Shown here piece after piece: positions 3 through 25,375 of a DNA stretch of 32,000 nt. The translations under genes and the position numbers were made by a program. The notes below the pieces were generated by a model, which worked only from the letters and a program-made list of their open reading frames with translations, did not search any database and was not told the origin of the DNA. How positions within the stretch are numbered: position 1 is the first letter of the stretch; every line of letters begins with the position of its first letter. Source of the DNA: Candidatus Hermodarchaeota archaeon (lineage in GTDB: Archaea; Asgardarchaeota; Heimdallarchaeia; Hodarchaeales; Hodarchaeaceae); the NCBI GenBank assembly GCA_048886185.1, contig JBHLKY010000009.1:90001-122000 (forward strand), in the 5' to 3' direction.

Positions 3-3000
3 TTTCCAGAACCAAATTATAATTTCGATGCTGAAGTTCAATGGGTATCTGCTGATTTTACGAAATCAAATGCTACACTGGCTATCTATACTGGTAATTT
101 AGGAATAGAGGCATTAAAAGTTGATGTGTGGAATGGATCATGGAATACGATTATTCCTAACCTGGTAGCCAATTCATGGAATAATATTAGCGTAGTGAAT
201 TATTTAACAACTTCAACTTTCACTATTAGATTCAAAGGTACGAATGAAAGCTCAGATACAACCCAGGATCAATGGAATATTGATGTGACACTACTCCACA
301 CTTGGGATAATGATGAAACTCCTCCAATGATAAATGATTTTTTCGTTGATGATCTAGGTACAGGTATCGGAATTTTTTGGGCGAATGTCACAGATTCTCA
401 ATCTGAGGTTGCAGAAGTAGATCTTGAAGTAAATTCAGTTGAATATTCTATGAACTATAATGGATCTTTATGGGTCAAACAAATCTCAGTCAATTATGGC
501 CAATATTATGAATTCCAAGTCATAAACGCTTCAGACTCAGAAAACTATATTCTCTCTCCCTCCGAAATAAGAAATCACACATTTGACTATGATTCCACAA
601 TTCCAACGGTTGAAAATTGGGAATATTATCCAAATATTGGTATTAATGGAACTTTTAAAGCGAATGTCTCTGATACTTGGGGTGAAATAGACACTGTTCT
701 TGTGAATGTTACAGAGGTTGATGGGATTCCTCGTAATGATTTATGGGCGATAATGGGTTTAACAGCCTCGGGTTACATCAACAATACACTTTTTTTGAAT
801 AAGAATAAAGTATTCAACTTTACTATCTTTGTTAATGATACTTCAGGAAATTCATATACATCATTAAAGCATACTGGAAGTGGTCCCAACCATCCTCCAC
901 AAGCATCTAATCTCTCTCTAACAATCGATCCAAGAACTAATGAATCTTTAATAGCAAATTGGACATTCTCCGATGTAGATGGAGACGATGAGCCTTTGAA
1001 TAGTTGGATTATACGCTGGTATAAATCTGGAGTACTTCAGGACTTATATAATAACCTAAAGATAATTCCCTCTACAGCAACTTCAAAAGGAGAAATATGG
1101 AATTATACACTTCAGGTATCTGATGGAGACAAGTACTCACTTCAATACAATTCACCGCCTACAACTATTATTAACACCCCTCCTGAAGCAATTAATGTAA
1201 CAATTACTTCTAAACCAACAAGTAGTGATGAATTAGTAGCAGGATGGACCGCGAGCGATATAGATGGGGATAATCCAGATAATTATCTACATGTTACCAT
1301 AATCAGATGGTATCTTTGGACTGGAAGTTGGACTGAAATTCCGGGATTAATGAACTCTACTTATGTTACAGCAGGTAATTTAACACGGAGTCAAACTTAT
1401 CGCTTTAAATTAGAGCTTTTTGATGGAGAGGAGTACTCGAAGGTCTATATTTCTCCAAATACGACAATATTAAACTCATTGCCAATTTTAACGGCTACAC
1501 CGACTTTTAATAAAACTACAGATATATTTCCAACAGATAATATAAATATCACATACTCATATAGTGATCCAGATGGCGATCTAGAAGAGACTACTCAACG
1601 AATTGTGTTATGGTATTGGAATGGTGAACTAAATTCGTCAAAAACAAATAATGTGACTTTATTAAGCTCTGAGACATCCTCGGGAGAGACTTGGCAATAT
1701 CGACTACAAGTTTATGACGGATTCAATTATAGCATAATTTACACATCAATTTTAATTTCAATTGGTGCTTATACAAATAATATACCTGAAGTTCAGAATA
1801 TTACATTAACTGGGGGGATAAATACAACCACTGTCGATCTTGTTGCCAGTTATGATTTTTTTGATCTTGATGGGCATCAAGAAGTTGAAAAAGAAATAAT
1901 TTGGTTTATGAATGGTGATATACAACCTGATCACAATAACTCATTGATAATTGGTTCTAGCTTCACAGTTAAAGGTCAAATTTGGAATTTCACCATCAAA
2001 GTTTTTGATGGTTTAAATTGGTCTTCCCAATATGTGTCTAATGAATTGATTATTCAGAATTCTATACCAAAAGTCACTGATATCCAAATTACATCAAATA
2101 CGACAACTATCCATAATTTAACCATTACTTGGGATATTTTTGATGCTGATAATGATGATGAAGATAGCTTTAACCTTAGATGGTATATCAATAATATTTA
2201 CAATAGTTCTTTTGATGATTTATCAGAAATCTCTTCATTAAACACAAAAAAAGGAGAAGAATGGATCTGTTCAATAAGAATATATGATAGCGAAAATTAT
2301 TCAATATGGTATAATTCTTCTACAACTCACATTTTGAATACACCCCCTCTAATCCAAGATTTAGAGCTAACAGGCGGTGAGAATACAAGTCAAAACATTA
2401 TTTTGAATTATGAATTCATTGATGACGATAATGATTCAGAAAACGTTGCAATTAATTGGTTTTACATAGATGGGTCGATTATACCTGGTGAGACTGGTGT
2501 TGAACTCCCCAATACCTATTTTGTTGCAGGAAATATTCTATACGCCCAAATAATTCCGAATGATGGTGAAGTTTCAGGAAATATTTATCGAACCGAATAT
2601 ATCCAGATAGGGAACGCAATTCCCCAAATTATCGGCAGTCCAGAGATTCTGGGCTTCAATGGAAGCTCTATCTATTTTGCTGCGGTACCTCTTTATGTGA
2701 ATTATACAGCAGAAGATTTAGACAGCCCAATTTATATTTATGATATAGAAATCGATGAAAACGGACTTGTATCTAATTCGAATTATAAGTGGTATAAGGA
2801 TGGAGACATTGTGAGTGAATTAACTGGCCCAACTGTACCAACTTATTACTTGTCCAAAGGCGATACTTGGATAGTAAGTGTCCAAATAAAAGATAGGTTC
2901 AATGATGTTAGTTTTTGGAAAAATTCTTCAACAATAGTGATTGGGAATACACCTCCTGAAATTGGATCATTTACTTGGTCAACAAGTTCCCCAACTGTAC

Positions 3001-5471
3001 AAAATGATTTGTCCTTTTCATATACTTATTATGACCTTGATTCTGATTCCGAAAGTAAAAGTCAAGTCATAATTTTTTGGTACAAGAATGGAACAGAAAT
3101 AGCACGGAATCAAAGTACCTTATCTAGTTTCCTATTTAATAGAGGAGATGAGATTAACGTTTCAATTCGTGTATCGGATGGAGAAGACTACAGTCTCTTT
3201 TACAATTCAACAACAGTCATTGTGGTTAATGCAATTCCTGAAGCTTATAACCTTGCTATTACACCGAGTAATCCTTATACTTATGATACATTAGCATTAG
3301 ATTATGATTTCATAGATTATGATAATGACAATGAAAGCTCTGAATGGATTATTCATTGGGTTCGAAATGGGCTTCCTGTTTCTGAATTTGTAAATAAGAC
3401 AAAGGTAAATGCTTCTTATACTTCAGCAGGTGAAGTATGGTTTGCTTACCTAACAGTATTCGACTCTCTAGATTATAGTCAAGAGTATACCGTGCCTTAT
3501 AAGATCATTTTGAATTCAGCCCCCCGAATATTAAGTGTTTCTATCAATGAGAACACTAATACTAGCTACGCAGATTCTAATCTGTTTTTAAATCCGAATG
3601 AAGATATAACATTCTATGATCCCGATCTGGATCCAATATTAGGGTATACAATTACTTGGGTAAGAAATTATACATTTCAGCCAATTTATACAGATCAAAC
3701 TACAATTTTGAATTCTGAACTTAGTAAAGGAGACGTATGGTTTGTTATTGTGAGAGTATTTGACGGAAAAGACTGGTCGAGTAATCAATCGTCTCAAGAA
3801 GTATTTATTATTAATAAATCCCCCGAAGTTCTTGATTTGAGGGTTATAAATACGGCTTTTTCTGATTTCTTACTTGAAAATGAAAACATTGTGTTAGCTT
3901 ATACGTTTCTAGATATAGATTATGACACAGACAGCTCAGTAATTAACTGGTATCGCAATCAAACTTTACTCCCTGAGTATTCTAATTTGACAGTAATCCC
4001 AGCCAGTGCAACCTCTCCGGGAGATATTTGGTATGTTGAAATTCAGCCATATGATGGTGAATCATTTGGTACTCAAATGAACATTTCAATGCATATAGAA
4101 AGCCATCCAATGATTAATGAGATCAGTATTGAAATTAATTTAGATAAAGAAGGTCATTATACTTTCTTGATTAATGTTACAGATCCGAGAAATCCGATTT
4201 CAGAAACCATTTTGATTTTCAGCTTCCAGAATGATACATTAGAACAAACGAAATGGGCTGAATTCAATGGTTCAGAATGGATCTTAGATTATGAACTAGA
4301 AAACTATTCTCTTCTAGGAAATTTAGTAAAGATAGAAGTAATAGCGATTTCAGAAGTCTATTATTCAACTAGGTTTGAAATATCTTCATCGAGTATTTTT
4401 TACTATGAAATGGAAGATAATGTTGCTCCTCGTGTAATAGACGCATTTTTCGAAAAAGATGATGAGTCGAATCCGAGATATTTAACTTTTTATACGCAAA
4501 TTGAAGAATTTGGAATAGGTGTTGATGAAGTCATTCTTTATTACTATTTTCAACCTTACACTGAGGGAAGTGGAGCCAGTAATACTAACTGGCTCAGTTC
4601 TTCAATGATTTTTCAAAATAGAAGTATTATGGATGGTTTAGAGTACTGGGCAGTAGTAGTAGATTTTAATCATAACAACTCTAATTTTGAAATTCTTTAT
4701 TATATTTCAACCTCCGATCTTTCTGGAAACAAAAATGCACTTGCGTTTGATATAAGAGATTTTCCTCAACGTATCAGTGAGAATAGATTTATTTATAAAT
4801 CTCCTGGATTACCAGAATGGCTAGTAATTCTCTCATTTATTTTGGTGTTCTGCATTTTAATTGGATCTGTTGCCTACATTAAGTTCATCCGTAAGCCTGA
4901 ACTCGTTGGTTTTGATAAAAAAGTAGTAATGAAAAATGTTACCAAAATAAGTCATGAAGAAGTAATAGCTTCTATGGATCTTCATACACTTGGAATTGTT
5001 CTTTCTTATTTTGACCAGAGATCGGGACCCCTTCCCTTAATTGTAATTCCAGATCTATTACAAGATAATATAGCACCTTTAATAGCACTTTCAGATCGTT
5101 CATTCAACAGTTGTGGTTTTGCCAGTGATTTCACCTCTAAAACCTTTTCAAGTTTTGATTACTCTTTGGAAAGCCTTATACGCGTAAATTCAATGTCCTA
5201 TGGTTATTCAATAGAAAATCCAGAAGCAAGAGGGGGAGCTGAGCATTTTACTGTGAATATTCTCGTTGTTCCTGAAATATTTCCATTAATCAATCAATTC
5301 AAGGAAGAACTACAGGATTCTGTTCATGACATCCACATGTTGATGACAATTGAACCTGAAAATAAGAGTGGAATCTTATCATCGGTCGTTAATCTTAGGG
5401 AAAAAGTCTCATATATTGTTTTATCCTATAAGGACATTTATCAAACTACCGAGTTGATCGAGGAAGGATGA
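3..5471 (+). CDS. Giant single-pass cell-surface glycoprotein (5'-partial): beta-rich extracellular domains, 11 Ig/cadherin-like repeats, TM helix, cytoplasmic longin/uDENN-like domain
   Basis: The frame is open from base 3 (FPEPNYNFDAEVQW...), so the GTG at 126 is internal and the true start lies upstream of the window. Many N-x-S/T sequons, N-x-x-P...DxDGD...W repeats, hydrophobic LVILSFILVFCILIGSVAYI followed by KFIRK, then a ~190-aa tail. Confidence 0.9.
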   Translation, partial: FPEPNYNFDAEVQWVSADFTKSNATLAIYTGNLGIEALKVDVWNGSWNTIIPNLVANSWNNISVVNYLTTSTFTIRFKGTNESSDTTQDQWNIDVTLLHTWDNDETPPMINDFFVDDLGTGIGIFWANVTDSQSEVAEVDLEVNSVEYSMNYNGSLWVKQISVNYGQYYEFQVINASDSENYILSPSEIRNHTFDYDSTIPTVENWEYYPNIGINGTFKANVSDTWGEIDTVLVNVTEVDGIPRNDLWAIMGLTASGYINNTLFLNKNKVFNFTIFVNDTSGNSYTSLKHTGSGPNHPPQASNLSLTIDPRTNESLIANWTFSDVDGDDEPLNSWIIRWYKSGVLQDLYNNLKIIPSTATSKGEIWNYTLQVSDGDKYSLQYNSPPTTIINTPPEAINVTITSKPTSSDELVAGWTASDIDGDNPDNYLHVTIIRWYLWTGSWTEIPGLMNSTYVTAGNLTRSQTYRFKLELFDGEEYSKVYISPNTTILNSLPILTATPTFNKTTDIFPTDNINITYSYSDPDGDLEETTQRIVLWYWNGELNSSKTNNVTLLSSETSSGETWQYRLQVYDGFNYSIIYTSILISIGAYTNNIPEVQNITLTGGINTTTVDLVASYDFFDLDGHQEVEKEIIWFMNGDIQPDHNNSLIIGSSFTVKGQIWNFTIKVFDGLNWSSQYVSNELIIQNSIPKVTDIQITSNTTTIHNLTITWDIFDADNDDEDSFNLRWYINNIYNSSFDDLSEISSLNTKKGEEWICSIRIYDSENYSIWYNSSTTHILNTPPLIQDLELTGGENTSQNIILNYEFIDDDNDSENVAINWFYIDGSIIPGETGVELPNTYFVAGNILYAQIIPNDGEVSGNIYRTEYIQIGNAIPQIIGSPEILGFNGSSIYFAAVPLYVNYTAEDLDSPIYIYDIEIDENGLVSNSNYKWYKDGDIVSELTGPTVPTYYLSKGDTWIVSVQIKDRFNDVSFWKNSSTIVIGNTPPEIGSFTWSTSSPTVQNDLSFSYTYYDLDSDSESKSQVIIFWYKNGTEIARNQSTLSSFLFNRGDEINVSIRVSDGEDYSLFYNSTTVIVVNAIPEAYNLAITPSNPYTYDTLALDYDFIDYDNDNESSEWIIHWVRNGLPVSEFVNKTKVNASYTSAGEVWFAYLTVFDSLDYSQEYTVPYKIILNSAPRILSVSINENTNTSYADSNLFLNPNEDITFYDPDLDPILGYTITWVRNYTFQPIYTDQTTILNSELSKGDVWFVIVRVFDGKDWSSNQSSQEVFIINKSPEVLDLRVINTAFSDFLLENENIVLAYTFLDIDYDTDSSVINWYRNQTLLPEYSNLTVIPASATSPGDIWYVEIQPYDGESFGTQMNISMHIESHPMINEISIEINLDKEGHYTFLINVTDPRNPISETILIFSFQNDTLEQTKWAEFNGSEWILDYELENYSLLGNLVKIEVIAISEVYYSTRFEISSSSIFYYEMEDNVAPRVIDAFFEKDDESNPRYLTFYTQIEEFGIGVDEVILYYYFQPYTEGSGASNTNWLSSSMIFQNRSIMDGLEYWAVVVDFNHNNSNFEILYYISTSDLSGNKNALAFDIRDFPQRISENRFIYKSPGLPEWLVILSFILVFCILIGSVAYIKFIRKPELVGFDKKVVMKNVTKISHEEVIASMDLHTLGIVLSYFDQRSGPLPLIVIPDLLQDNIAPLIALSDRSFNSCGFASDFTSKTFSSFDYSLESLIRVNSMSYGYSIENPEARGGAEHFTVNILVVPEIFPLINQFKEELQDSVHDIHMLMTIEPENKSGILSSVVNLREKVSYIVLSYKDIYQTTELIEEG
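888..4097 (+). repeat. 11 tandem ~92-111 aa Ig/cadherin-like protein repeats
   Basis: Units start NHPP, NTPP, NSLP, NNIP, NSIP, NTPP, NAIP, NTPP, NAIP, NSAP, NKSP. Each has a D-x-D-(G/N/S)-D-like motif, an I-x-W-Y/F strand, a (K/S)G(E/D)xW motif and a (V/I)xDG..(Y/W)S hairpin. Confidence 0.85.
4821..4880 (+). other. Transmembrane helix of the giant surface protein
   Basis: 20 hydrophobic residues LVILSFILVFCILIGSVAYI followed by basic KFIRK (positive-inside rule). Confidence 0.85.
4989..5468 (+). other. Cytoplasmic longin/uDENN-like domain
   Basis: LGIVLSYFDQRSGPLPLIVIP resembles the uDENN first beta-hairpin (hhhxxFDxxxGPxxxxxxP). ENPEARGGAEHFTVNILV resembles the DxxARG(F)xRxxxhxh motif of folliculin/SMCR8 uDENN. 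Recognised by eye only. Confidence 0.6.
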
Positions 5472-11042: not shown

Positions 11043-12968
11043 ATGGTTGAAGGCATAATGGCGAGAATTGAGGATATTTTTGAGAATGTGAGTGATAGAA
11101 CTCTGGTTTTGCTAGGAAATGAAGCTATAGCCCGAGGAATTATAGAAGCTGGTGTGGCTGGTGTCTTCACTTATCCTGGAACTCCCTCATCTGAAATCCC
11201 AAACACTCTATATGCAGCACAGCCCATATTAAAGGATATAGGATATGATCTATATCTTGAGTGGAGTGCAAACGAAGCTGTTGCTCTTGAAAGTGCCTAT
11301 GGTTTCTCATTACTGGGTCATCGGGTAATTTTTGTCTGTAAACATGTTGGATTAAATGTTGCTGCTGATCCTTTTATGACTCTTGTCAATGCAGGTGTTA
11401 TAGGTGGATTGGTTCTTATTGTAGCTGAAGATCCTCATATGCATTCCTCACAGAATGAGCAGGACAATCGTTGGTATACAAAGATCTCAAATGCTCCCAT
11501 GTTTGAACCAAGTGATGCTAGAGAAGCAAAAGCAATGTTAAAAGATGCATTTCGTGTTAGTGAAAAGTATCAAGTTCCTGTTATTTTAAGAACTGTAACT
11601 AGAATTTCGCACTCACGTACAGATGTACACCTCGAACCCATCACTTTTCCAGAGTTTCGTCAAGCTATCTCTCTCGAAATAGATCCAAGACGGTTTGTAT
11701 GTGTACCTAGTAATGCACGTCAAAATAAACAACGGATACTAGGGATGATTAACGACATTTCAAGTTATTTGGCCGATTCCCCTTGGAACCGAGCGGAAGA
11801 GGGAGATGAGGAAACATTTGCTTTCATTACATGCGGATCAGCATATAATTACTTAAAAGAAGTCTTGATTAAACTTAGAACAAGTTACCCAATATTAAAA
11901 ATAGGTCTCTCACATCCTTTCCCAGAGTATCAAGTTACTCAATTCCTAAAGAAATATTCCTCTTCCAAAATCATAGTTGTTGAGGAGGCAGATGATGTTT
12001 TAGAGACTTTTGTAAAAAAACTAGCATTTGAGATTGGATTTGAAAATAAGATAATTGGAAGGAGAGAAGGAATCACTCCTTCTTATGGAGAACTAACAAT
12101 ACGTAAGGTTTGGAATGGTTTAACCAAAACTATGAATCTTGATTTATATCCTACAGAGATCCCTCAAGATCGATCTGATTTGACATTTGCACGGCCTCCA
12201 GTTTTATGTCCTGGATGTCCACATCGAGCGACATTTTATGCACTGAATAAAGCTATCCCTAGAAGACACCGTATAATATCTACTGATATAGGTTGTTATA
12301 CTTTAGGTGTTGCTCCTCCACTTTCTGCTGGTAACGTGACCATCTGTATGGGATCTTCTTTAGGAATTGGTTCTGGACTGGCCCATAGTCCAGGTTTAAA
12401 AGATCCAGTTGTATCAATTATTGGTGACTCAACTTTTTGGCATACTGGATTACCTGGCCTTGTAAACGCTGTTTACAATAAAAGCAATCTTTTATTGTTG
12501 GTTGTGGACAATTCAGCTACAGCTATGACTGGTTTTCAACCAAATCCTTCATCTTTTACTTCCCATTCTTCTGTTGAACCCCTATCCATTGAGGAAGCGG
12601 TTCGAGGCATTGGTGTTAAACATGTAGTAACAATTGATGCTTACAACCCCAAAGTATCAATTGAAGTTATTAAAGAAGCCATTAAGCACGAAGGAGTCTC
12701 AGTAATCGTATCCAAGGGAGAATGTGTAATTCAATCCACGCGGAGGGAGGGATTACCAAAAACCAGTTATTATATAGAAGCAGATCGTTGTGTTGGCTGC
12801 TATGCATGTGTTAACATGATTGCATGTCCAGCTATCATATGGTCAGATCGTATAACAACTGAAGAAGGTAAACCCATTCCAATGATCGATCAATCTTTAT
12901 GCACTCGTTGTGGGTTATGTGCTTCAGTATGCCCTTATGGTGTGATAGTAGAAAAGTCTGAGATTTAA
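11043..12968 (+). CDS. iorA: Indolepyruvate (arylpyruvate):ferredoxin oxidoreductase alpha subunit
   Basis: LLGNEAIARG, YPGTPSSEI, KHVGLNVAAD, SSQNEQD, LCPGCPHR, DIGCYTLG, TPP-binding GDSTFWHTG, C-terminal 2x[4Fe-4S] (CVGCYAC...CP; CTRCGLCASVCP). Alternative start ATG at 11058. Confidence 0.95.
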   Translation: MVEGIMARIEDIFENVSDRTLVLLGNEAIARGIIEAGVAGVFTYPGTPSSEIPNTLYAAQPILKDIGYDLYLEWSANEAVALESAYGFSLLGHRVIFVCKHVGLNVAADPFMTLVNAGVIGGLVLIVAEDPHMHSSQNEQDNRWYTKISNAPMFEPSDAREAKAMLKDAFRVSEKYQVPVILRTVTRISHSRTDVHLEPITFPEFRQAISLEIDPRRFVCVPSNARQNKQRILGMINDISSYLADSPWNRAEEGDEETFAFITCGSAYNYLKEVLIKLRTSYPILKIGLSHPFPEYQVTQFLKKYSSSKIIVVEEADDVLETFVKKLAFEIGFENKIIGRREGITPSYGELTIRKVWNGLTKTMNLDLYPTEIPQDRSDLTFARPPVLCPGCPHRATFYALNKAIPRRHRIISTDIGCYTLGVAPPLSAGNVTICMGSSLGIGSGLAHSPGLKDPVVSIIGDSTFWHTGLPGLVNAVYNKSNLLLLVVDNSATAMTGFQPNPSSFTSHSSVEPLSIEEAVRGIGVKHVVTIDAYNPKVSIEVIKEAIKHEGVSVIVSKGECVIQSTRREGLPKTSYYIEADRCVGCYACVNMIACPAIIWSDRITTEEGKPIPMIDQSLCTRCGLCASVCPYGVIVEKSEI

Positions 12969-12994
12969 TACAAATGATCTGAAAGGAGTTTAAA

Positions 12995-13456
12995 ATGAAA
13001 CAATTAAATCCGAAATGGTGTGAATGGATTCTTCCTATAATAAACTCGAATCCATTTTTCTCTTTTTTTGGTATCAAGCTTAACGAATTTAGATATGGAG
13101 AGTCGTTCTTAGAACTTGATATAAAGGAAAATCACCTCCAATTACATGGGGTTATTCATGGTGGTGTTTCTGCTGCATTGATTGATGCTGCAGGAACTTT
13201 AGCTGTAGTGACTCAGATAGAGGGACTTAATAGTGCTACCACAATCGATATGAAGGTAAATTATTTATCAAGTGCCAAAGAAGGTAAAATTCTAGCATAT
13301 GGCCATTGTATTAAGCTTGGGAACACGATTGGTGTATCAGAAGCAACAATCAGGGATGAAGAAGAGAAAATCATCGCTCATGGATTAGTAACAGTGATGA
13401 TAAGGCCTCCTATTGATTTCCCAGGGGTGGATCAAATACCTCCAAAATTTTTGTGA
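12995..13456 (+). CDS. PaaI-family hotdog-fold acyl-CoA thioesterase
   Basis: HLQLHGVIHGGVSAALIDAAG motif, TIDMKVNYL, AAAGGAG SD upstream. Confidence 0.88.
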   Translation: MKQLNPKWCEWILPIINSNPFFSFFGIKLNEFRYGESFLELDIKENHLQLHGVIHGGVSAALIDAAGTLAVVTQIEGLNSATTIDMKVNYLSSAKEGKILAYGHCIKLGNTIGVSEATIRDEEEKIIAHGLVTVMIRPPIDFPGVDQIPPKFL

Positions 13457-13487
13457 TTTAGATGCTATTGAAGTTATAGGTGATAAT

Positions 13488-14084
13488 ATGGAATATCAAA
13501 TTTTCCTTGCTGGCGTGGGAGGACAGGGAATACTTTCTGTAACTGATATAATATGTAAATCTGCTGTTGATATGGGTTTTAGGGTTCATGGTTCTGAAAC
13601 ACATGGTATGTCTCAGCGAGGTGGGAGTGTTTTCTCAAATGTTCGTTTTGGGGATGTATTTTCACCACTGATCATGGAACGTGATTCTGATGTCCTTCTT
13701 GCTTTTGAACCAACAGAAGCTTTACGATATGCTCAATTTGTAAAACCAAAAGGGATTTGTCTTGTAAATACACATCCCATTCCTTCTCCGAGTTTTACAT
13801 TAACTAAAAGTAATTATCCTGAAATTGAATCCATTATAACAGCTTTAAAGGCTTATAGTCCTCACATTGTTCCAATTAATGCTACAAAACTAGCAACTGA
13901 TTTAGGAATGGCAATTGTTCAAAATATTGTTATGTTAGGAGCTCTATCAGCAGTAGAAGGGCTCCCTCTTTCAAAAAGTTCTCTCTTAGTGGCATTAAAA
14001 AAGCAATTTAAGGCTAAACATTTTGATATCAACCTTGAGGCATTTCAGGCAGGGCATCAAGCCTATGTGGATAGCCTTTGTTGA
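13488..14084 (+). CDS. iorB: Indolepyruvate:ferredoxin oxidoreductase beta subunit
   Basis: AGVGGQGIL, SETHGMSQRGGSV, FEPTEALR, NIVMLGAL. True start ATG 13488 with AGGTGA SD; the ORF-track start 13413 overlaps the thioesterase gene. Confidence 0.93.
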   Translation: MEYQIFLAGVGGQGILSVTDIICKSAVDMGFRVHGSETHGMSQRGGSVFSNVRFGDVFSPLIMERDSDVLLAFEPTEALRYAQFVKPKGICLVNTHPIPSPSFTLTKSNYPEIESIITALKAYSPHIVPINATKLATDLGMAIVQNIVMLGALSAVEGLPLSKSSLLVALKKQFKAKHFDINLEAFQAGHQAYVDSLC

Positions 14085-14131: not shown

Positions 14132-15712
14132 ATGATTTGTGTTACACCCTCAGAAGGGTTTTATGAGTTGATTAAGAATATAATAGGACGAAATCTTCCT
14201 GAAAGGCTTTTTGGTATAGAAATTATTCCTTATCAGGGTATTCATGCCTCAAGAACAAAAGGAAGGAGCCGAATTGGTACGAAATATCAACCATATGTTG
14301 TCACTAGAGACACAAAACGATTCTATGATGATGTTGACCACCTTTTAGGGTATCATTTTCTTGAGCTATTTGACGGTATGACAATCTCTTTTCATCATAT
14401 CCTGAGAAATGGAGATGGTGTCTTATTACCTATCATTGATTCTTTCGCGTCCTATGGAATTAGAAATATCACATTAGCTTCTACAGCTTTATTCCCTGTT
14501 CATTCACCTCTTTTGGAGCACATAGAGACTGGTGTTATCGGACGAATTGAAGGTAGTATGAATGGTCCAATTGGTCAGGCTATATCTAGGGGAGATGTGA
14601 ATATTCCCACTATTCTTAGATCACATGGGGGCCGCGCGCGAGCAGTTCAAGAAGGGAGTTTACATATTGATGTAGCTTTCATTGCTGCTTCTGCAGCTGA
14701 TTTTCTCGGAAATTTGACTGGTATTGAAGGGAGAAATGCTTTTGGTAGTCTTGGATATCCCCTTGAAACAGATTCACTCTACGCAGATGTAGTCATAGGA
14801 GTTACTGACACTATTCTTGATTATCCCCTAGAAAATGTAAGTATCCCTTCTAGTCGGGTTGATGCGATTCTTGAAGTTGATTCAATTGGTGATCCTTCAA
14901 AAATAGCATCAGGAAGTTTGAATAGAAAATTATCGCCCGATCGGCTTGAAATTGCTGAAAATGCAGTTCAAGTGATGTATCATTCAGGATTTCTACAAGC
15001 TGGATTTAATTGGCAGGCTGGCGCAGGGGGCATGTCCTTGGCAACCACTAAATATTTGAAAGATCTGATGGTTGATAAAAATCTAGAAGGTAGTTATATC
15101 TTTGGTGGAATTGCAAAGAATTCTGTCGAATTATTGGAAGCAGGCCTTTTCAGGATAATTTATGATGCCCAATCATTCGATTCTGAAGCAATTGACTCTT
15201 TAAAAAATAACTCTAATCATGTTGAAGTTTCAATAGATCATGCTTATAATCCTTTCAATAAAGGTTGTATTGCCAACAATACTGATTTCTCTGCTTTAGG
15301 GGCCACTGAAGTTGATGTTAATTTTAATATCAATGTCAATACTTTTAGTGATGGTACTCTAAACTCTGGAATAGGTGGACATCAGGATGCAGCTCGCGCG
15401 AAAATTAGTATGATTCTATTGCCATTGGTACGCAAAGTACCTTGTATCATTGATAATGTTGTCACAGTTTCTAGTCCAGGGGATTGTATTGATGTTATTG
15501 TGACAGATGGTGGAATAGCCATCAATCCTAAACGAGTAAAGTTGAAAAAACGTTTGGAAAAAGCTGGATTAAATATTCAATCCATAGATGATCTAAAAGA
15601 AGAAGCCATAAACTTGGCAGATCCAATAAAAGCCAATCTGACCGATAAAATTACTACATTAGTGGAATATCGGGATGGTACTCATTTGGATGTTATTTAT
15701 CAAATAGAATAG
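14132..15712 (+). CDS. citF: Citrate lyase alpha subunit / citrate CoA-transferase
   Basis: GMTISFHHILRNGD, LRSHGGRARA, HIDVAFIAA, GSLGY, QAGAGG, ATEVDVNFNINV, GIGGHQDAA, SPGDCIDVIVTDGGIAINP, VEYRDGT. The start may be the TTG at 14168. Confidence 0.88.
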   Translation: MICVTPSEGFYELIKNIIGRNLPERLFGIEIIPYQGIHASRTKGRSRIGTKYQPYVVTRDTKRFYDDVDHLLGYHFLELFDGMTISFHHILRNGDGVLLPIIDSFASYGIRNITLASTALFPVHSPLLEHIETGVIGRIEGSMNGPIGQAISRGDVNIPTILRSHGGRARAVQEGSLHIDVAFIAASAADFLGNLTGIEGRNAFGSLGYPLETDSLYADVVIGVTDTILDYPLENVSIPSSRVDAILEVDSIGDPSKIASGSLNRKLSPDRLEIAENAVQVMYHSGFLQAGFNWQAGAGGMSLATTKYLKDLMVDKNLEGSYIFGGIAKNSVELLEAGLFRIIYDAQSFDSEAIDSLKNNSNHVEVSIDHAYNPFNKGCIANNTDFSALGATEVDVNFNINVNTFSDGTLNSGIGGHQDAARAKISMILLPLVRKVPCIIDNVVTVSSPGDCIDVIVTDGGIAINPKRVKLKKRLEKAGLNIQSIDDLKEEAINLADPIKANLTDKITTLVEYRDGTHLDVIYQIE

Positions 15713-15730
15713 AATTTGATCTTCGTTTCC

Positions 15731-17872
15731 TCAAGCAAGTAGTTTTCTAGGTTTCTCGCCTTTGTATAATGCTTCTGAAAAATTGATTCTACGCATTTGT
15801 GGTTGAGATGTGATCTCCTCAAAATAATGAGCAGATAATCCTGCAATCCGACCATATATGAACACTGCTTTTGCAAGATTCGGATTAAGTCCCATGTCTG
15901 CAATTATGGCACCAATAACCCCATCAACGTTGATGGGAAGATCTATACCGCGTACTCTTTTAAAAATATCCGTAATGATTTTTGAAATCTCAATACACTC
16001 ACCTGCTATTCCCGCATGTTTTGCTTTAATCCATAAGACGTCCCGACGAGGATCTCGTGTGTGAAATCGGTGTCCTAGGCCTTGAATTCTTTTTCCTTCC
16101 TTCATATATTGACTGATATTTTCTTGGACTGCTTCGGAAAGATCTATACTCTTTTCTTTAGCAAGTGCTACACATTTCAGAAAAAATTGTGCGGCTTTTG
16201 CTCCAGCTCCTCCATGAACATCCGTTATCGCACTAACTCCTTGGGCGACAGCTACTTCATAAGCAGCTCGTACTGTAGCAGCAATAATCGTTGCTTGAGC
16301 TGAGGGTGGGGTTACTCCATGATCTACACTAGCTACTATCATTGCTTCAAGTACACCAGCTTTTTTCTCATCTATAACAGTTTCTCCTGTGAGAATCTGA
16401 TATATAATATGAGAGAAAGGTCGTTTTATGTCAATATTTTCTAGTATGTGTAAATTTCCAAATATTGAAGCCAGATATCCTGCTACACGACCTAAACAAA
16501 ACATCAACTGATTAGGAGGGTTCTTACTTTCTTGAATGCAATAATTTGTCAATATTTCATCCTGTAACAAATATTTTGCTATTGTTTTTGAAATATCTTC
16601 ATTTTCAATAATATTCACTTTGGGAACAGGTAATTTAGTAGCTTTTAGAGAAATCTGTTCCAATTCATTGGTCTGTTCCAATTTAGGAAAATTTCCTTTT
16701 ACAAGTAAATAAGCTGTTTCAATGAAAGTTTTCTTCTTAATTATGTCTTTAAGAGGGTACCCAGCTATTATTAAGTTATTTGGCTGAACTTTGGTAATAA
16801 GAGTTGCCCATCCTGCTTTTTCAGGCGGTTCTTCCCATGTTTTTATCATCTTTTCTTGATATCTTGTGACACTGAAATATTTCCAACCTTGGAGAATTTC
16901 CTTGACAGTTTCGACTAATTCATACTGACTATTGACAACAGTTACACCTGCTTTCTCTAAAGCTTCTTTTTTAGTTTTAAAGGTACCATAATCTTGTCCA
17001 GGTGTGATAATGGCCCCAGCATGCCCCATTGTTTTTCCTGAAGGTGCATTTGCACCAGAAATTAATGCGACGATCGGTATTGGATATTTCTTTTTATTAG
17101 CAATGATATCATTTGCAAGAAGTTCTTCTTGACTACCCCCAATTTCACCTGCTACCACAATGAGGTCTGTGTTTGGACATTGTTGAATGAGGGGAACGAT
17201 GTCAATAAATCTTGTTCCTATTGCTCCATCTCCTCCTATCCCTAAGACAGCGTTTTGTGCTATACCAGCACTCGCTAATGCGTCCGATAGATGGTAGAGA
17301 ATTGCTCCACTCCTTGAAATTATTGATACTCCACGTGGTCCAAATTCCCCCTCAGTTTTTTCTTCTGGATAAAAAATATCAGGAAGCATACCAATTTTTA
17401 TTCCCTCTGGTGGAAAAATAATCCCAGGTGTATTTCCACCAAAAAGTAGAGTATTGTGTTTTCTCGCTGCGACAATTATATCACGAACATCTTTTAGAGG
17501 GATACCTTCGGTTATTAAGACAATAATCGGGATACCTGACTCAATTACTTCAATCGCTACATCTCTTACTCCTGAATAATGTCTCCAGATACTTGAAACA
17601 GCAATATTTGGATGCTCTTTGAGACATTCTTTAACTCTGTCATAAACAGGAATAACTTCGTGAATTCGAGTGCCTCCTCTTCCAACAGAAATACCAGCTG
17701 TTACATTAGTGCCAAAATCTTTCATTAACCCAGCATGCTTTATACCTTGGCTTCCAAGACCAATAATTACAGTTTCAATCTTCTTAGTTTTTTGAATGTA
17801 GCTAGCTAATTCAGGACGGATTTGTTTGATGAGAAAATATAATACGCCTTGATCTACAGGAATCTTTTTCAT
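15731..17872 (-). CDS. ATP-citrate-lyase-alpha-like fusion: SucD-like CoA-binding/phospho-His domain plus citryl-CoA lyase/citrate synthase-fold domain
   Basis: N-half: ITEGIP, GGNTPG, SRSG, GIGGD, GEIGG, MGHAGA (phospho-His). C-half: WATLITKV, VDHGVTPPS, HGGAG, GLGHRFHTRDPR, PINVDG, GRIAGLSAH. Confidence 0.85.
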   Translation of the reverse strand: MKKIPVDQGVLYFLIKQIRPELASYIQKTKKIETVIIGLGSQGIKHAGLMKDFGTNVTAGISVGRGGTRIHEVIPVYDRVKECLKEHPNIAVSSIWRHYSGVRDVAIEVIESGIPIIVLITEGIPLKDVRDIIVAARKHNTLLFGGNTPGIIFPPEGIKIGMLPDIFYPEEKTEGEFGPRGVSIISRSGAILYHLSDALASAGIAQNAVLGIGGDGAIGTRFIDIVPLIQQCPNTDLIVVAGEIGGSQEELLANDIIANKKKYPIPIVALISGANAPSGKTMGHAGAIITPGQDYGTFKTKKEALEKAGVTVVNSQYELVETVKEILQGWKYFSVTRYQEKMIKTWEEPPEKAGWATLITKVQPNNLIIAGYPLKDIIKKKTFIETAYLLVKGNFPKLEQTNELEQISLKATKLPVPKVNIIENEDISKTIAKYLLQDEILTNYCIQESKNPPNQLMFCLGRVAGYLASIFGNLHILENIDIKRPFSHIIYQILTGETVIDEKKAGVLEAMIVASVDHGVTPPSAQATIIAATVRAAYEVAVAQGVSAITDVHGGAGAKAAQFFLKCVALAKEKSIDLSEAVQENISQYMKEGKRIQGLGHRFHTRDPRRDVLWIKAKHAGIAGECIEISKIITDIFKRVRGIDLPINVDGVIGAIIADMGLNPNLAKAVFIYGRIAGLSAHYFEEITSQPQMRRINFSEALYKGEKPRKLLA

Positions 17873-19155
17873 ATGGATGCCTCCTTCTTGAATTCAAAAC
17901 CTCTTCTGATTCCTTCCTTAATTACATCAGCCATGATCTTTTCATTCCCAACGACCATATCCAATAATTTTAAAGGCTCTGGGGTTTCGATTCTTGCTTT
18001 TTCAAGGTAGCTTTTCGCTGATGGTAGGTCAGTTCCTACCATTCTGCCATAAATTGGAATTATGCGTTCTTTATTACGATATCGTTCTCTTAAAGCCTGA
18101 ATTAATCCTCTAATGAATACATCACAGCTTGAGATGCCCCCAAATCTCGATGTGATGATGATATCAGTTAGGGGGTAATCCATTAAGAGATGAAACATTT
18201 GAGCTACTCGATTTTGTGGGGGTCCTCCTCCACTATCCATAAAATTAATGGGAACCACTTTACCATCAAAGAACTTATTACCAATATTCACAACTTCATC
18301 TATAGAAAATATCCCGTAACCTGCTCCCCCTGGAACAAGACCCACATGTAATACTTTTTCATCCTTGATTACATCATTGGAAAGTAGGTCTACATATGGA
18401 AATCCTTGGCTATAGGCTTTTTCTTCATTAGATGTTGGCTCAGCTATGTCATGTCGTCTGCTGGTTATTCCTAAAGTCTCCAAGAGCTTACTTTGCCTAT
18501 ATAAACCGTTATCATCGAGAACGATTTTTGCATCAGCAGCAATAACATTATCAGGCGTAATTATTACTGGATTGATTTCACAAAGCTTTGCATCAATATC
18601 CTGATACATTCGATAAGTTTTGTTAATAATTGAGGCAAGAGTCTCCTTCTGCTTTTTAGATAATTGGAGATCTTGATCTAATATTTCTGTAACTTCTCCT
18701 ATAATATTAGTTTGTAAAGCTCTATCATTGTTAATTATTTCCCTCTTTATAATCGTCTCAGGTCGATTTCGTGCAATTTCCTCAATATCTACTCCTCCAG
18801 AAGCGCTAACAACCAGAACATTATTGAAAGTATTTGGATCAGTTGTTACTCCTATATAACAACCCCCACGCTCTTCAACTGCTTCTTCGAAAAAAACTCT
18901 TTCCACTGGATGATCCTTGATTCGCAAATTCAAAAGCTCTGATGTTATATTTTTGGCTTCATTTAATGTATTAACTTTCTTTATTCCTCCTGCTTTACCT
19001 CGTCCCCCGATTAAAACAACAGCTTTTGCCATCGCAGGAAATTTCAGATCGAGTTTTTCGACTTCATCGACAGAATGAACGACACCAAATTGTTTTGGGA
19101 TTGGAATACCATTCTGTTCGAAAACTCTTTTCGATTCATGTTCATAGAGTCTCAA
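17869..19155 (-). CDS. ATP-grasp CoA-ligase beta subunit (SucC/citryl-CoA synthetase/AclB-like)
   Basis: MRLYEHESK, KAVVLIGGRGKAGGIK, SASGGVDIEEIA, EINP, DAKIVLDDN, NFMDSGGG, FGGISSCD, RMVGT. TTG start. Its stop overlaps the alpha-gene ATG (ATGA). Confidence 0.88.
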   Translation of the reverse strand: MRLYEHESKRVFEQNGIPIPKQFGVVHSVDEVEKLDLKFPAMAKAVVLIGGRGKAGGIKKVNTLNEAKNITSELLNLRIKDHPVERVFFEEAVEERGGCYIGVTTDPNTFNNVLVVSASGGVDIEEIARNRPETIIKREIINNDRALQTNIIGEVTEILDQDLQLSKKQKETLASIINKTYRMYQDIDAKLCEINPVIITPDNVIAADAKIVLDDNGLYRQSKLLETLGITSRRHDIAEPTSNEEKAYSQGFPYVDLLSNDVIKDEKVLHVGLVPGGAGYGIFSIDEVVNIGNKFFDGKVVPINFMDSGGGPPQNRVAQMFHLLMDYPLTDIIITSRFGGISSCDVFIRGLIQALRERYRNKERIIPIYGRMVGTDLPSAKSYLEKARIETPEPLKLLDMVVGNEKIMADVIKEGIRRGFEFKKEASI

Positions 19156-19419: not shown

Positions 19420-20034
19420 TTATTTCCCTAGGAATAAGCGTTGTTCCCATTCATCAATTGCTTCGTGGATATCCTCTAAATATTTCACTTTCTTAGCACG
19501 AACATCACGATTAAAACTAGCAATGTCGTAAAGTAGTCGTGAGGACTGACTAGTTTCTGCAAGAGCATCTCTAAATTGATCGATAAAATCAGGAATTCTT
19601 TCAGGAGACTTTTCCCAAAAATTCGATATATTTTCTCTTAAAGATTGAATCATAATACGTAGATCACCTGCTTCAGAGACAGTGATTAATGTGCTTGCCC
19701 TTTCTTGAATTCTGCTTTTTATTTGTTGAATAAAGCGTTTCGCAGCCTCACTACGATTTTTCACTATTCCTGCAGATATCCAATTTTCAGTAACCACTTC
19801 AATAAGTTGAAAGACGGCTGCGTCTTCATTTCCTTGTATTTCAGGGAGATAATGAAATAATCCTAATTTAGTAATGACAAAACGGAAATTTGAGCTAAGA
19901 TATTGACGTTCACGAGGAGCAAGCTCAATTCGTTTCAGCAAATCGCGAAAGTCCTTTGCACTCTTTCTTCCAGATTGAAAATCGATCGTTAAATGTGGTT
20001 TAATTTTTTCGCAAACCTGATCGACTACTCTCAT
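19420..20034 (-). CDS. Hypothetical, predicted helical protein (204 aa)
   Basis: Long ORF with AAGGTG SD and ATG, no competing ORF. No family recognised. Confidence 0.7.
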   Translation of the reverse strand: MRVVDQVCEKIKPHLTIDFQSGRKSAKDFRDLLKRIELAPRERQYLSSNFRFVITKLGLFHYLPEIQGNEDAAVFQLIEVVTENWISAGIVKNRSEAAKRFIQQIKSRIQERASTLITVSEAGDLRIMIQSLRENISNFWEKSPERIPDFIDQFRDALAETSQSSRLLYDIASFNRDVRAKKVKYLEDIHEAIDEWEQRLFLGK

Positions 20035-23362: not shown

Positions 23363-25375
23363 GTGCTTTTACTGAATTTTCTAAAACTTACTTTCTCATG
23401 TATAATCTTAGCTATTTTGGGGACAGGGGGAGTTTTTTTTCAGTTTTGGTCACAAGTAGGAAATGATGAATTATTTTCTTCAATTCCTATAATTGATGGA
23501 AATACATCCGTTTCAAGTCTTTATAGAGTCAATCCACGACCATCTATCAATACAGAAATGTCAACTAAAAGTGTGGATGTTGATCAAGACTGCTTATCTC
23601 CTCCAAAGCGAATTAATCAAGTACAAGGAAATACAGCTCTTTTCTGGGTTTTAAATATTGGAACAATGAACCATTATCTTATTAATGCCACTCTAGAAGT
23701 TACTGGGCCTCATTGTTTAATTTATTCGAATCTTTCCACCATTACTGAATCCACACTTTTAATGATGAACGACTCGTTCGAATCAATTATCTATCCCAGA
23801 CTTTCCGAGTTCTTCGGTCTCCCTCCAGACATTGATTCTAATAAAAAAGTTATTTTGCTAGTTTATGATATCCTCGATGGACTAGGTGGTGGGACTTATG
23901 TTTCTGGATTTTTTTATCCACTGAATCAATATCTTAACTCTGATCTTCCACCAAATCAACGCTATAGTAATGAAGCAGAAATCATTCATATTGATGGAGT
24001 TGAGGGATTGTCACACCTCATTGCAGGTGAATTTGCTACCTTAGCTCATGAATTTCAACACATGATCCACTTTGGACGTGATGACGATGAGGATCTTTGG
24101 TTGGATGAAGGTGCATCAATGTTTGCTGAATTTCTGATTGGAGAAGATCCCTTTATCGATGGCCCCTATAAACCGCAATTTAGTTCAAATGCAGAAACAT
24201 CGTTAACTTATTGGGATTATTATAACAATCAAGGTTTAGTATTGGCCAATTATGGAGCTGCTTTTGCTTTTTTCCTATACCTTGCTGAACACTATGGAGG
24301 TTCAACCATAATTCAAACCCTTGTCAATTGTCCTGAAAATGGTATTATTTCTATAGAGGAAGCATTAGGTTTCTTATCGTTTAGAGAAATCTTTCGAAAT
24401 TGGACAATAGCTAATTTTCTTGATGATACATCATTTGCGGATGGATTATACGGATATTACAACATTTCTCTCTCTATGTCTGTTGAAGAATCTTATAACA
24501 CAGTATCTGTAATACGAACAGAGAATTCCGTGCCCTATTGGGGTACAGATTATTTGAAGTTTACTAATCGAATGAATTTACCATTTAACTTCGAATTCAA
24601 AGGTGATATTACCTCTGATTTCATAGTAACGGCGATTCTTTCCAATACCACTACTCCACCTTTTAACTCCAAAGTTATTCCTATTAATATTTCTTCCACT
24701 GAATTTGGTACATTTTCAATTGATCCTTTTGGTTCTGTGGATGAAATAATCATAGTTATAAGCGCTTACACTCAACCTGGGAATAATGATCATAATAACG
24801 AAGAACCTGCCCCATCACAAGCTTATTGGTTTTTAGTCAATCCCTCTACAATTACTATAGTGACTGGTAATTTAACTTTCCTTGAAAATGGTGATTTCCT
24901 CAGGATTTGGAATGTTACAGTCTTTGATGAGAATGGGTTATTGTGGCAGGATGCAGATGGAGCTATTTATGACATTCAGACGGAATTAGGAGTTTCTACT
25001 GGAATTACAGGAAATTTAACATTCAATTTTGAAACGAATACTTGGGAGACCACAAACATTTTGATTTCAGCATTACCAGAGGGATGTTATCGCGTTTTGT
25101 ACCATTTCTTCAACGAGTCTTGTTCTGGTTTTGTCTATTCTGAGTTGTTTACTATTACAACTGTCTCTTCAAACTCAACTTTCAGCAGTAATCCTCAATC
25201 AACATTTATTTCATTGAGTAGCACCTCTGAAGAATCATTATATTCATCCAGAGACACCTTTGAAACATCTCAGCAGTCCTCTGTCAAAGTGAATCCATCA
25301 ATAAATTTCTTGTTGATTATCATAGTTTTGACAATGAGTCCTCTCATTGTTAATCGAAGGAGGAAATCTCTTTAA
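23363..25375 (+). CDS. Secreted, membrane-anchored zinc metallopeptidase (HExxH...E gluzincin; M30/immune-inhibitor-like)
   Basis: N-terminal hydrophobic signal, LAHEFQHMIH (24047-24061), WLDEGAS, NYGAAFAFFLYL, Ser/Thr-rich linker, C-terminal hydrophobic stretch plus RRRK. Start codon uncertain. Confidence 0.8.
   Translation: MLLLNFLKLTFSCIILAILGTGGVFFQFWSQVGNDELFSSIPIIDGNTSVSSLYRVNPRPSINTEMSTKSVDVDQDCLSPPKRINQVQGNTALFWVLNIGTMNHYLINATLEVTGPHCLIYSNLSTITESTLLMMNDSFESIIYPRLSEFFGLPPDIDSNKKVILLVYDILDGLGGGTYVSGFFYPLNQYLNSDLPPNQRYSNEAEIIHIDGVEGLSHLIAGEFATLAHEFQHMIHFGRDDDEDLWLDEGASMFAEFLIGEDPFIDGPYKPQFSSNAETSLTYWDYYNNQGLVLANYGAAFAFFLYLAEHYGGSTIIQTLVNCPENGIISIEEALGFLSFREIFRNWTIANFLDDTSFADGLYGYYNISLSMSVEESYNTVSVIRTENSVPYWGTDYLKFTNRMNLPFNFEFKGDITSDFIVTAILSNTTTPPFNSKVIPINISSTEFGTFSIDPFGSVDEIIIVISAYTQPGNNDHNNEEPAPSQAYWFLVNPSTITIVTGNLTFLENGDFLRIWNVTVFDENGLLWQDADGAIYDIQTELGVSTGITGNLTFNFETNTWETTNILISALPEGCYRVLYHFFNESCSGFVYSELFTITTVSSNSTFSSNPQSTFISLSSTSEESLYSSRDTFETSQQSSVKVNPSINFLLIIIVLTMSPLIVNRRRKSL

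Follow-up and report, generated by a model that had tools for sequence, protein, structure and literature searches.

The window analysed here is a stretch of 32,000 nucleotides from genome G000, which is 96.1% complete and belongs to the genus Ca. Hodarchaeum. The features on which the analysis turns are given below, the first six in window coordinates and the last two elsewhere in the same genome.

11043-14084, + strand: iorA, a paaI-type thioesterase gene and iorB (TIGR03336, TIGR00369, TIGR03334), as context
14132-15712, + strand: citF paralog a (citF-a), a CitF-family CoA-transferase gene (Pfam PF04223, TIGR01584 and a structure match)
15713-15730, no strand: gap of 18 bp separating the convergent stop codons
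15731-16819, - strand: Ccl-type lyase domain with a citrate-synthase fold, residues about 352-713 of a fusion protein (best PDB match 6hxp)
16868-17872, - strand: SucD-like half of the fusion, with CoA-binding and CoA-ligase domains (Pfam PF02629, PF00549, PF13607)
17869-19155, - strand: SucC-like ATP-grasp subunit, in a 4-bp overlap with the start of the fusion
L004:9790-11403, contig C12 of G000: citF-b, a second orphan citF, 51% identical to citF-a
L245, contig C1:86000-105900 of G000: TCA cluster of aconitase, IDH, canonical aclAB, sdh, fumAB and sucCD

The open reading frame of citF-a encodes 526 amino acids when counted from its first ATG. As its orthologs are 511-516 aa long and the public gene call gives 514 aa, the TTG at 14168 is the probable true start. 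The product matched the Pfam CitF model PF04223 with an E-value of 3e-135 and 452 bits (cut-off 27) and the TIGR01584 citF model with 501.4 bits, which is at the cut-off of 501.45. Its AlphaFold model (pLDDT 93) matched the CitF structures 2hj0 and 1xr4 with TM-scores of 0.91 and 0.87, and 66 alignment positions were invariant between citDE-linked and orphan CitF groups. The protein belongs to the CitF family and not to a CitDEF complex. Values of dN/dS were 0.06-0.08 (about 0.07) for citF-a and 0.05-0.14 across both citF paralogs, indicating purifying selection. The full-length profile match and the low dN/dS agree with the original prediction that citF is intact, and with the reading frame preserved in this way the gene was rejected as a pseudogene or vestige. 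A foreign contig is unlikely, as its GC content resembles that of the host and synteny is kept in 8 relatives. A sequence signature of carrier-free CitF was dropped, since a citDE-linked CitF (L161) shares six of the seven candidate positions, and a locus-orphan CitF (P0097) does not show the RG to RK change at 435 that makes up the seventh.

The convergent ligase-lyase fusion gene terminates at 15731, placing it 18 bp from the end of citF as first described, while the gap in relatives measures 8-26 bp (n=7) or 128 bp (n=1). Since citF-a and the fusion are convergent in the window, they are not co-transcribed. The fusion gene lies on the minus strand and encodes 713 aa, with a SucD-like N-terminus and a citrate-synthase-fold C-terminus. 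The lyase domain found its best PDB match in the citryl-CoA lyase (Ccl, EC 4.1.3.34) of H. thermophilus (6hxp, E 2e-34), segment 32-47 of which is matched twice; an insertion of about 100 residues (window 16370-16680, minus strand) duplicates the first Ccl helix region. This insertion gives the fused lyase the length of a citrate synthase and is found throughout the fusion group. With the domain interrupted in this way, the fusion reached 200 bits against the NCBIfam citryl-CoA lyase model (cut-off 245). Residues H518, H553, H601, R609, D650, F671, R675 and R694/R695 are conserved across the fusion and standalone Ccl groups, and the set and its spacing agree with those listed for E. coli citrate synthase in PMC13147460.

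The SucD-like half carries the phospho-His motif GHAG (H284), has intact ligase motifs and is closer to the alpha subunit of succinyl-CoA synthetase (SCS; E 5e-57) than to AclA (E 7e-33). The citrate-binding loop of ATP-citrate lyase (ACL), GGxIANFT / RRGG, is absent from the SucC-like subunit of the window, where SRFGGISSCD and GRMVG are present, and the canonical ACL loop is carried by AclB on contig C1. The substrate loop SRFGGISSCD has an Arg that is absent from the genome's own SucC; it is kept in 16 of 16 fusion-linked SucC-like subunits and is one of three invariant loops, together with PGGAGYG and NFMDSGGGP. RFGG also occurs in 3 of 6 ligases adjoining standalone ccl genes. A second ligase type, with the loop SGSGVASQEQ, stands beside ccl in L184, L213 and L241, and the loop types may represent two uncharacterised citryl-CoA-synthetase-like families. 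An exact copy of 100 bp of the sucC-like gene (window 18475-18574) occurs in an intergenic region of contig C2 (L260:3123-3222), as either an assembly artefact or a small repeat. A 204-aa ORF on the minus strand (19420-20034), downstream of the ligase-lyase unit, is conserved in that position among close relatives; it had no Pfam match, as was the case for the window ORFs at 126-5471 (+, 1781 aa) and 23363-25375 (+, 670 aa). A scan for promoters and terminators gave counts near chance, with a bacterial consensus applied to an archaeal host.

The partners of bacterial citrate lyase, citC, citD, citE, citG and citX, were not found in G000 by family models run over the whole genome. HMMs built from archaeal citD, citE and citX reached a best E-value of 0.06 there, and TIGR00124 (citC) gave only short N-terminal matches far under the cut-off. 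The absence of cit genes near citF, on which the original prediction was built, thus extends to the 96.1%-complete genome, and no citCDEXG set was found elsewhere in it. The genus set comprises 22 genomes, mostly incomplete MAGs from the same genus as Ca. Hodarchaeum mangrovi, and these relatives are not independent of each other. Within it citD, citE, citG and full-length citC were found in 0 of 22 genomes and citF in 19, mostly as two paralogs of about 51% identity. The same searches recovered citD and citE in 10 of 10 citF-bearing genomes of f4 and f6, two further families of the class, which served as the control. Otherwise citF was nearly absent among 400 genomes of the phylum.

A Ccl-type lyase adjoins citF-a in all 16 assembled loci, as a standalone gene in 7, as the fusion alone in 7 and as both in 2. 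Two further citF-a loci, on contigs ending inside citF, were excluded, and in one genome the assembly is interrupted within the fusion gene by a gap. The standalone ccl gene encodes 253-269 aa and lies head-to-head with citF-a. Its product passes the NCBIfam citryl-CoA lyase cut-offs (274 against 212) and matched 6hxp with an E-value of 4e-57. All 18 Ccl-type genes found in the genus are citF-a neighbours, and genomes G001, G012 and G016 have neither citF-a nor a Ccl-type gene. A head-to-head pair of citF and ccl was also present in one outlying relative. The fusion-only genomes group as one clade in the CitF tree, and the two genomes with both lyases are its sister; the standalone-only genomes and the outlying relative branch outside these two groups. 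From this branching, the standalone Ccl looks to be the older partner, replaced by the fusion in the sub-lineage of the window, and the simplest history would run from a standalone pair through gain of the fusion to loss of ccl. A third arrangement was found in a sister CitF clade, where fumAB, citF, a sucC-like gene and the fusion follow each other in one direction. The expected co-occurrence of citF and the fusion therefore stood in one direction only: citF-a is always beside a Ccl-type lyase, but in family f3 the fusion stood without citF in 15 of 18 genomes, and citF was found in 0 of 31. As it stands there without citF, the fusion needs no CitF and is self-sufficient in most lineages.

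Scanning metagenomes with the Ccl alignment yielded 80 ccl loci, many of them short or closely related and many of one lineage. Fifty of these contained citF, mostly in the order HD-citF-ccl-leuCD, and 10 others a SucD-like CoA ligase, which never occurred together with citF; citD or citE were found in none of the 80. The HD, LeuCD and IDH families surround both a canonical citDEFG operon and the citF + ccl loci, and in family f3 LeuCD/IDH genes stand ahead of the fusion. That three cleavage modules are interchangeable within a single aconitase/IDH setting suggests citrate or a close analogue as the substrate. An HD-domain protein of about 185 aa recurs next to each of the three types of citrate-cleaving module (L259:16219-16779, L161:8552-9106). 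The Hodarchaeales pair and the HD-citF-ccl-leuCD pair lie apart in the ML tree, yet a single clade was not rejected by the AU test (p 0.24), so that separate origins of the two were not retained. Genes for citF with neither citDE nor ccl nearby were located at L257, L258, L162 and L159, which come from Thermoplasmata, from a contig without assignment and from a relative lying outside the Hodarchaeales clade; two such loci were seen in Thermoplasmata. Lone CitF may be common in the CitF subfamily.

Based on the observed gene content, linkage, conservation and fold, CitF-a and its Ccl-type partner are predicted, with a probability of roughly 0.6, to form a carrier-free two-enzyme citrate lyase, for which we infer the activity, the substrate, the direction and a fused domain that accepts free citryl-CoA. 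CitF-a would be a free-standing CoA-transferase acting on free CoA esters and not on a CitD carrier. In the first step it would interconvert acetyl-CoA + citrate and acetate + (3S)-citryl-CoA. In the second, as the fold and conserved residues suggest, the Ccl-type lyase would cleave citryl-CoA to oxaloacetate and acetyl-CoA and so regenerate the donor. CitF and Ccl both act on (3S)-citryl-CoA. The net reaction would be citrate ⇌ acetate + oxaloacetate without ATP, CitC, CitD, CitG or CitX, and since acetyl-CoA would be recycled catalytically, the carrier, maturation and activation genes would all be dispensable. This net reaction is near equilibrium. It could proceed either way, as citrate breakdown or as citrate formation from acetate. 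An acyl carrier is the normal partner of CitF-family enzymes, which are reported to accept CoA esters in vitro as well (PMC9813914, a secondary statement; PMC9196870), and cleavage of citryl-CoA by Ccl amounts to about -2 kJ/mol (PMC13147460).

In the deeper-branching members of Hodarchaeum the lyase would be the standalone Ccl head-to-head with citF, while in the lineage of the window, where no standalone ccl is present, the fused lyase domain would be fed by ATP-dependent and ATP-independent routes. The earlier idea of two entries into one lyase is kept as a proposal, but the entries would not be equivalent, as the CitF route recycles acetyl-CoA and yields acetate. With no net acetyl-CoA gained, this route could not stand in for ACL in carbon fixation as an alternative that needs no ATP. 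No ordinary citrate synthase was found in G000, where the fusion and AclA are the only citrate-synthase-fold genes, so that citrate formation from acetate would be possible there; a true citrate synthase is present in many relatives. A doubtful extension of the scheme has CitF, Ccl and the fused ligase share one free citryl-CoA pool that would link citrate, acetate, acetyl-CoA, oxaloacetate and ATP, with CitF and Ccl in reverse making citrate from acetate and oxaloacetate and so providing an ATP-free entry to an oxidative TCA cycle in genomes that, like G000, have no ordinary citrate synthase.

The bacterial citrate (pro-3S)-lyase CitDEF with CitC, CitG and CitX (EC 4.1.3.6; 1xr4 from Salmonella, 2hj0 from S. 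mutans) shares CitF (39% identity, TM about 0.9) and the proposed net reaction with the system described here. In contrast to it, the present system has no CitD, no CitE TIM-barrel lyase and no maturation or activation enzymes; its lyase has a citrate-synthase fold, and its intermediates would be free CoA esters. With the citryl-CoA synthetase/lyase route (CCS/CCL) it has in common a Ccl-type lyase with conserved catalytic residues and two steps via citryl-CoA, and the CCS-like architecture recurs in the neighbouring SucC-like/SucD-like pair. It differs in that citrate activation by CoA transfer rather than by ATP would give no net acetyl-CoA, and in that the lyase is fused to a ligase alpha subunit and carries the insertion. 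The two-subunit ATP-citrate lyase AclAB (6hxj, 6hxi) has the same domain order as the neighbouring two-gene unit, whereas the ligase parts of the latter resemble succinyl-CoA synthetase more closely and do not have GGxIANFT, and contig C1 encodes the canonical AclAB as a separate unit. Carrier-free CoA transfer followed by retro-aldol cleavage is known from succinyl-CoA:malate or citramalate transferase paired with malyl- or citramalyl-CoA lyase. In those pairs a family III transferase takes the place of CitF, and a lyase of the CitE type or another kind that of the citrate-synthase-fold enzyme. An account of CitF paired with Ccl was not found in the open literature, which excludes most subscription journals.

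Several observations count against the carrier-free citrate lyase. Canonical AclA is encoded in 20 of 22 genomes of the genus, so that an additional citrate route would be redundant, and citF-b is equally conserved yet has no lyase neighbour. Other orphan citF loci likewise stand without ccl, the fusion manages without citF in most lineages, and its convergent orientation in the window speaks against joint transcription with citF-a. The redundancy with ACL keeps alive an explanation that we consider unlikely, namely that the carrier-free transferase and lyase chemistry is the same but its substrate is a citrate analogue, either 2-methylcitrate or homocitrate or, with lower likelihood, citramalate. 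The LeuCD-type dehydratases and the IDH-family enzyme of the module would supply this analogue, and citrate itself would be left to the canonical ACL. These dehydratases and the dehydrogenase reach no specific NCBIfam cut-off, the best match of the latter being homoisocitrate dehydrogenase, and the ligase loop is unlike those of both SCS and ACL. The class I fumarases (fumAB) neighbouring citF in the sister clade would also fit, as such fumarases hydrate mesaconate as well. Moreover, the known CitF-type relatives include citramalate lyase (PMC9196870). However, the equivalents of the oxaloacetate-binding His and Arg residues are all kept, which disfavours citramalate, and the closest solved relative of the lyase is a true citryl-CoA lyase. 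The shared module around canonical citDEFG and the position of citF-b beside AcnA also speak for citrate.

Adjacency to the lyase could also be incidental, with CitF-a a lone acyl-CoA:acid CoA-transferase serving amino-acid fermentation by IorAB and PaaI, but this is improbable. In the window, iorA, paaI and iorB do lie a short distance upstream of citF-a in the same orientation, and orphan citF genes often stand in unrelated contexts. Yet iorAB is upstream of citF-a in 8 of 18 genomes, all in one sub-clade, while the Ccl neighbour is present at every assembled locus in three orientations, and genomes have either both citF-a and a Ccl-type gene or neither. Pairing of CitF-a with the ligase half is less probable still. 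In that case the reversed ligase would turn citryl-CoA into citrate, CoA and ATP, a citrate version of the acetate:succinate CoA-transferase/SCS cycle that follows stoichiometrically if both activities exist and for which the ligase motifs are intact; but the 7 genomes pairing citF-a with a standalone Ccl have no such ligase there, and four ADP-forming acyl-CoA synthetase alpha homologues and two AcsA genes in G000 make the cycle unneeded. Continued use of a protein carrier that bears no relation to CitD or is absent from the assemblies is very improbable, for although small carriers are easily missed in incomplete MAGs, the searches that found no citD, citE or citG in the genus recovered citD and citE in every control genome and no small conserved ORF recurs at citF loci.

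The second paralog, citF-b, is kept in at least 15 Hodarchaeum genomes and has an altered N-terminal motif, GFIHNLRYGD against SFHHxLRxGD. No lyase neighbour was present at the citF-b loci of the genus. The gene adjoins a cut-off-passing AcnA in 5 genomes and HD and IDH genes in 4, and in G000 it is 8-21 kb from HD, IDH and two pairs of LeuCD genes. G012 carries citF-b as its only citF. The product of citF-b might use the lyase domain of AclA.

If the carrier-free citrate lyase is real, it would add a further route of citrate interconversion, made of known parts, to ACL, CCS/CCL, reversed citrate synthase and CitDEF, and would give a physiological role to the in vitro CoA activity of CitF. It occurs in an Asgard order often placed closest to eukaryotes, and the genus offers a natural series of standalone lyase, both lyases and fusion only. 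The reading of MAGs would change as well: an isolated "citF" is mostly interpreted as a broken citrate lyase, and a "citryl-CoA lyase" found alone as a marker of the reductive TCA cycle or as citrate synthase. Genomes of family f4 carry two citDEF operons (L120, L122, L124, L126, L128, L130, L133), one with icd, acn and citX and the other without citX or TCA neighbours; the second operon might act on another acid.
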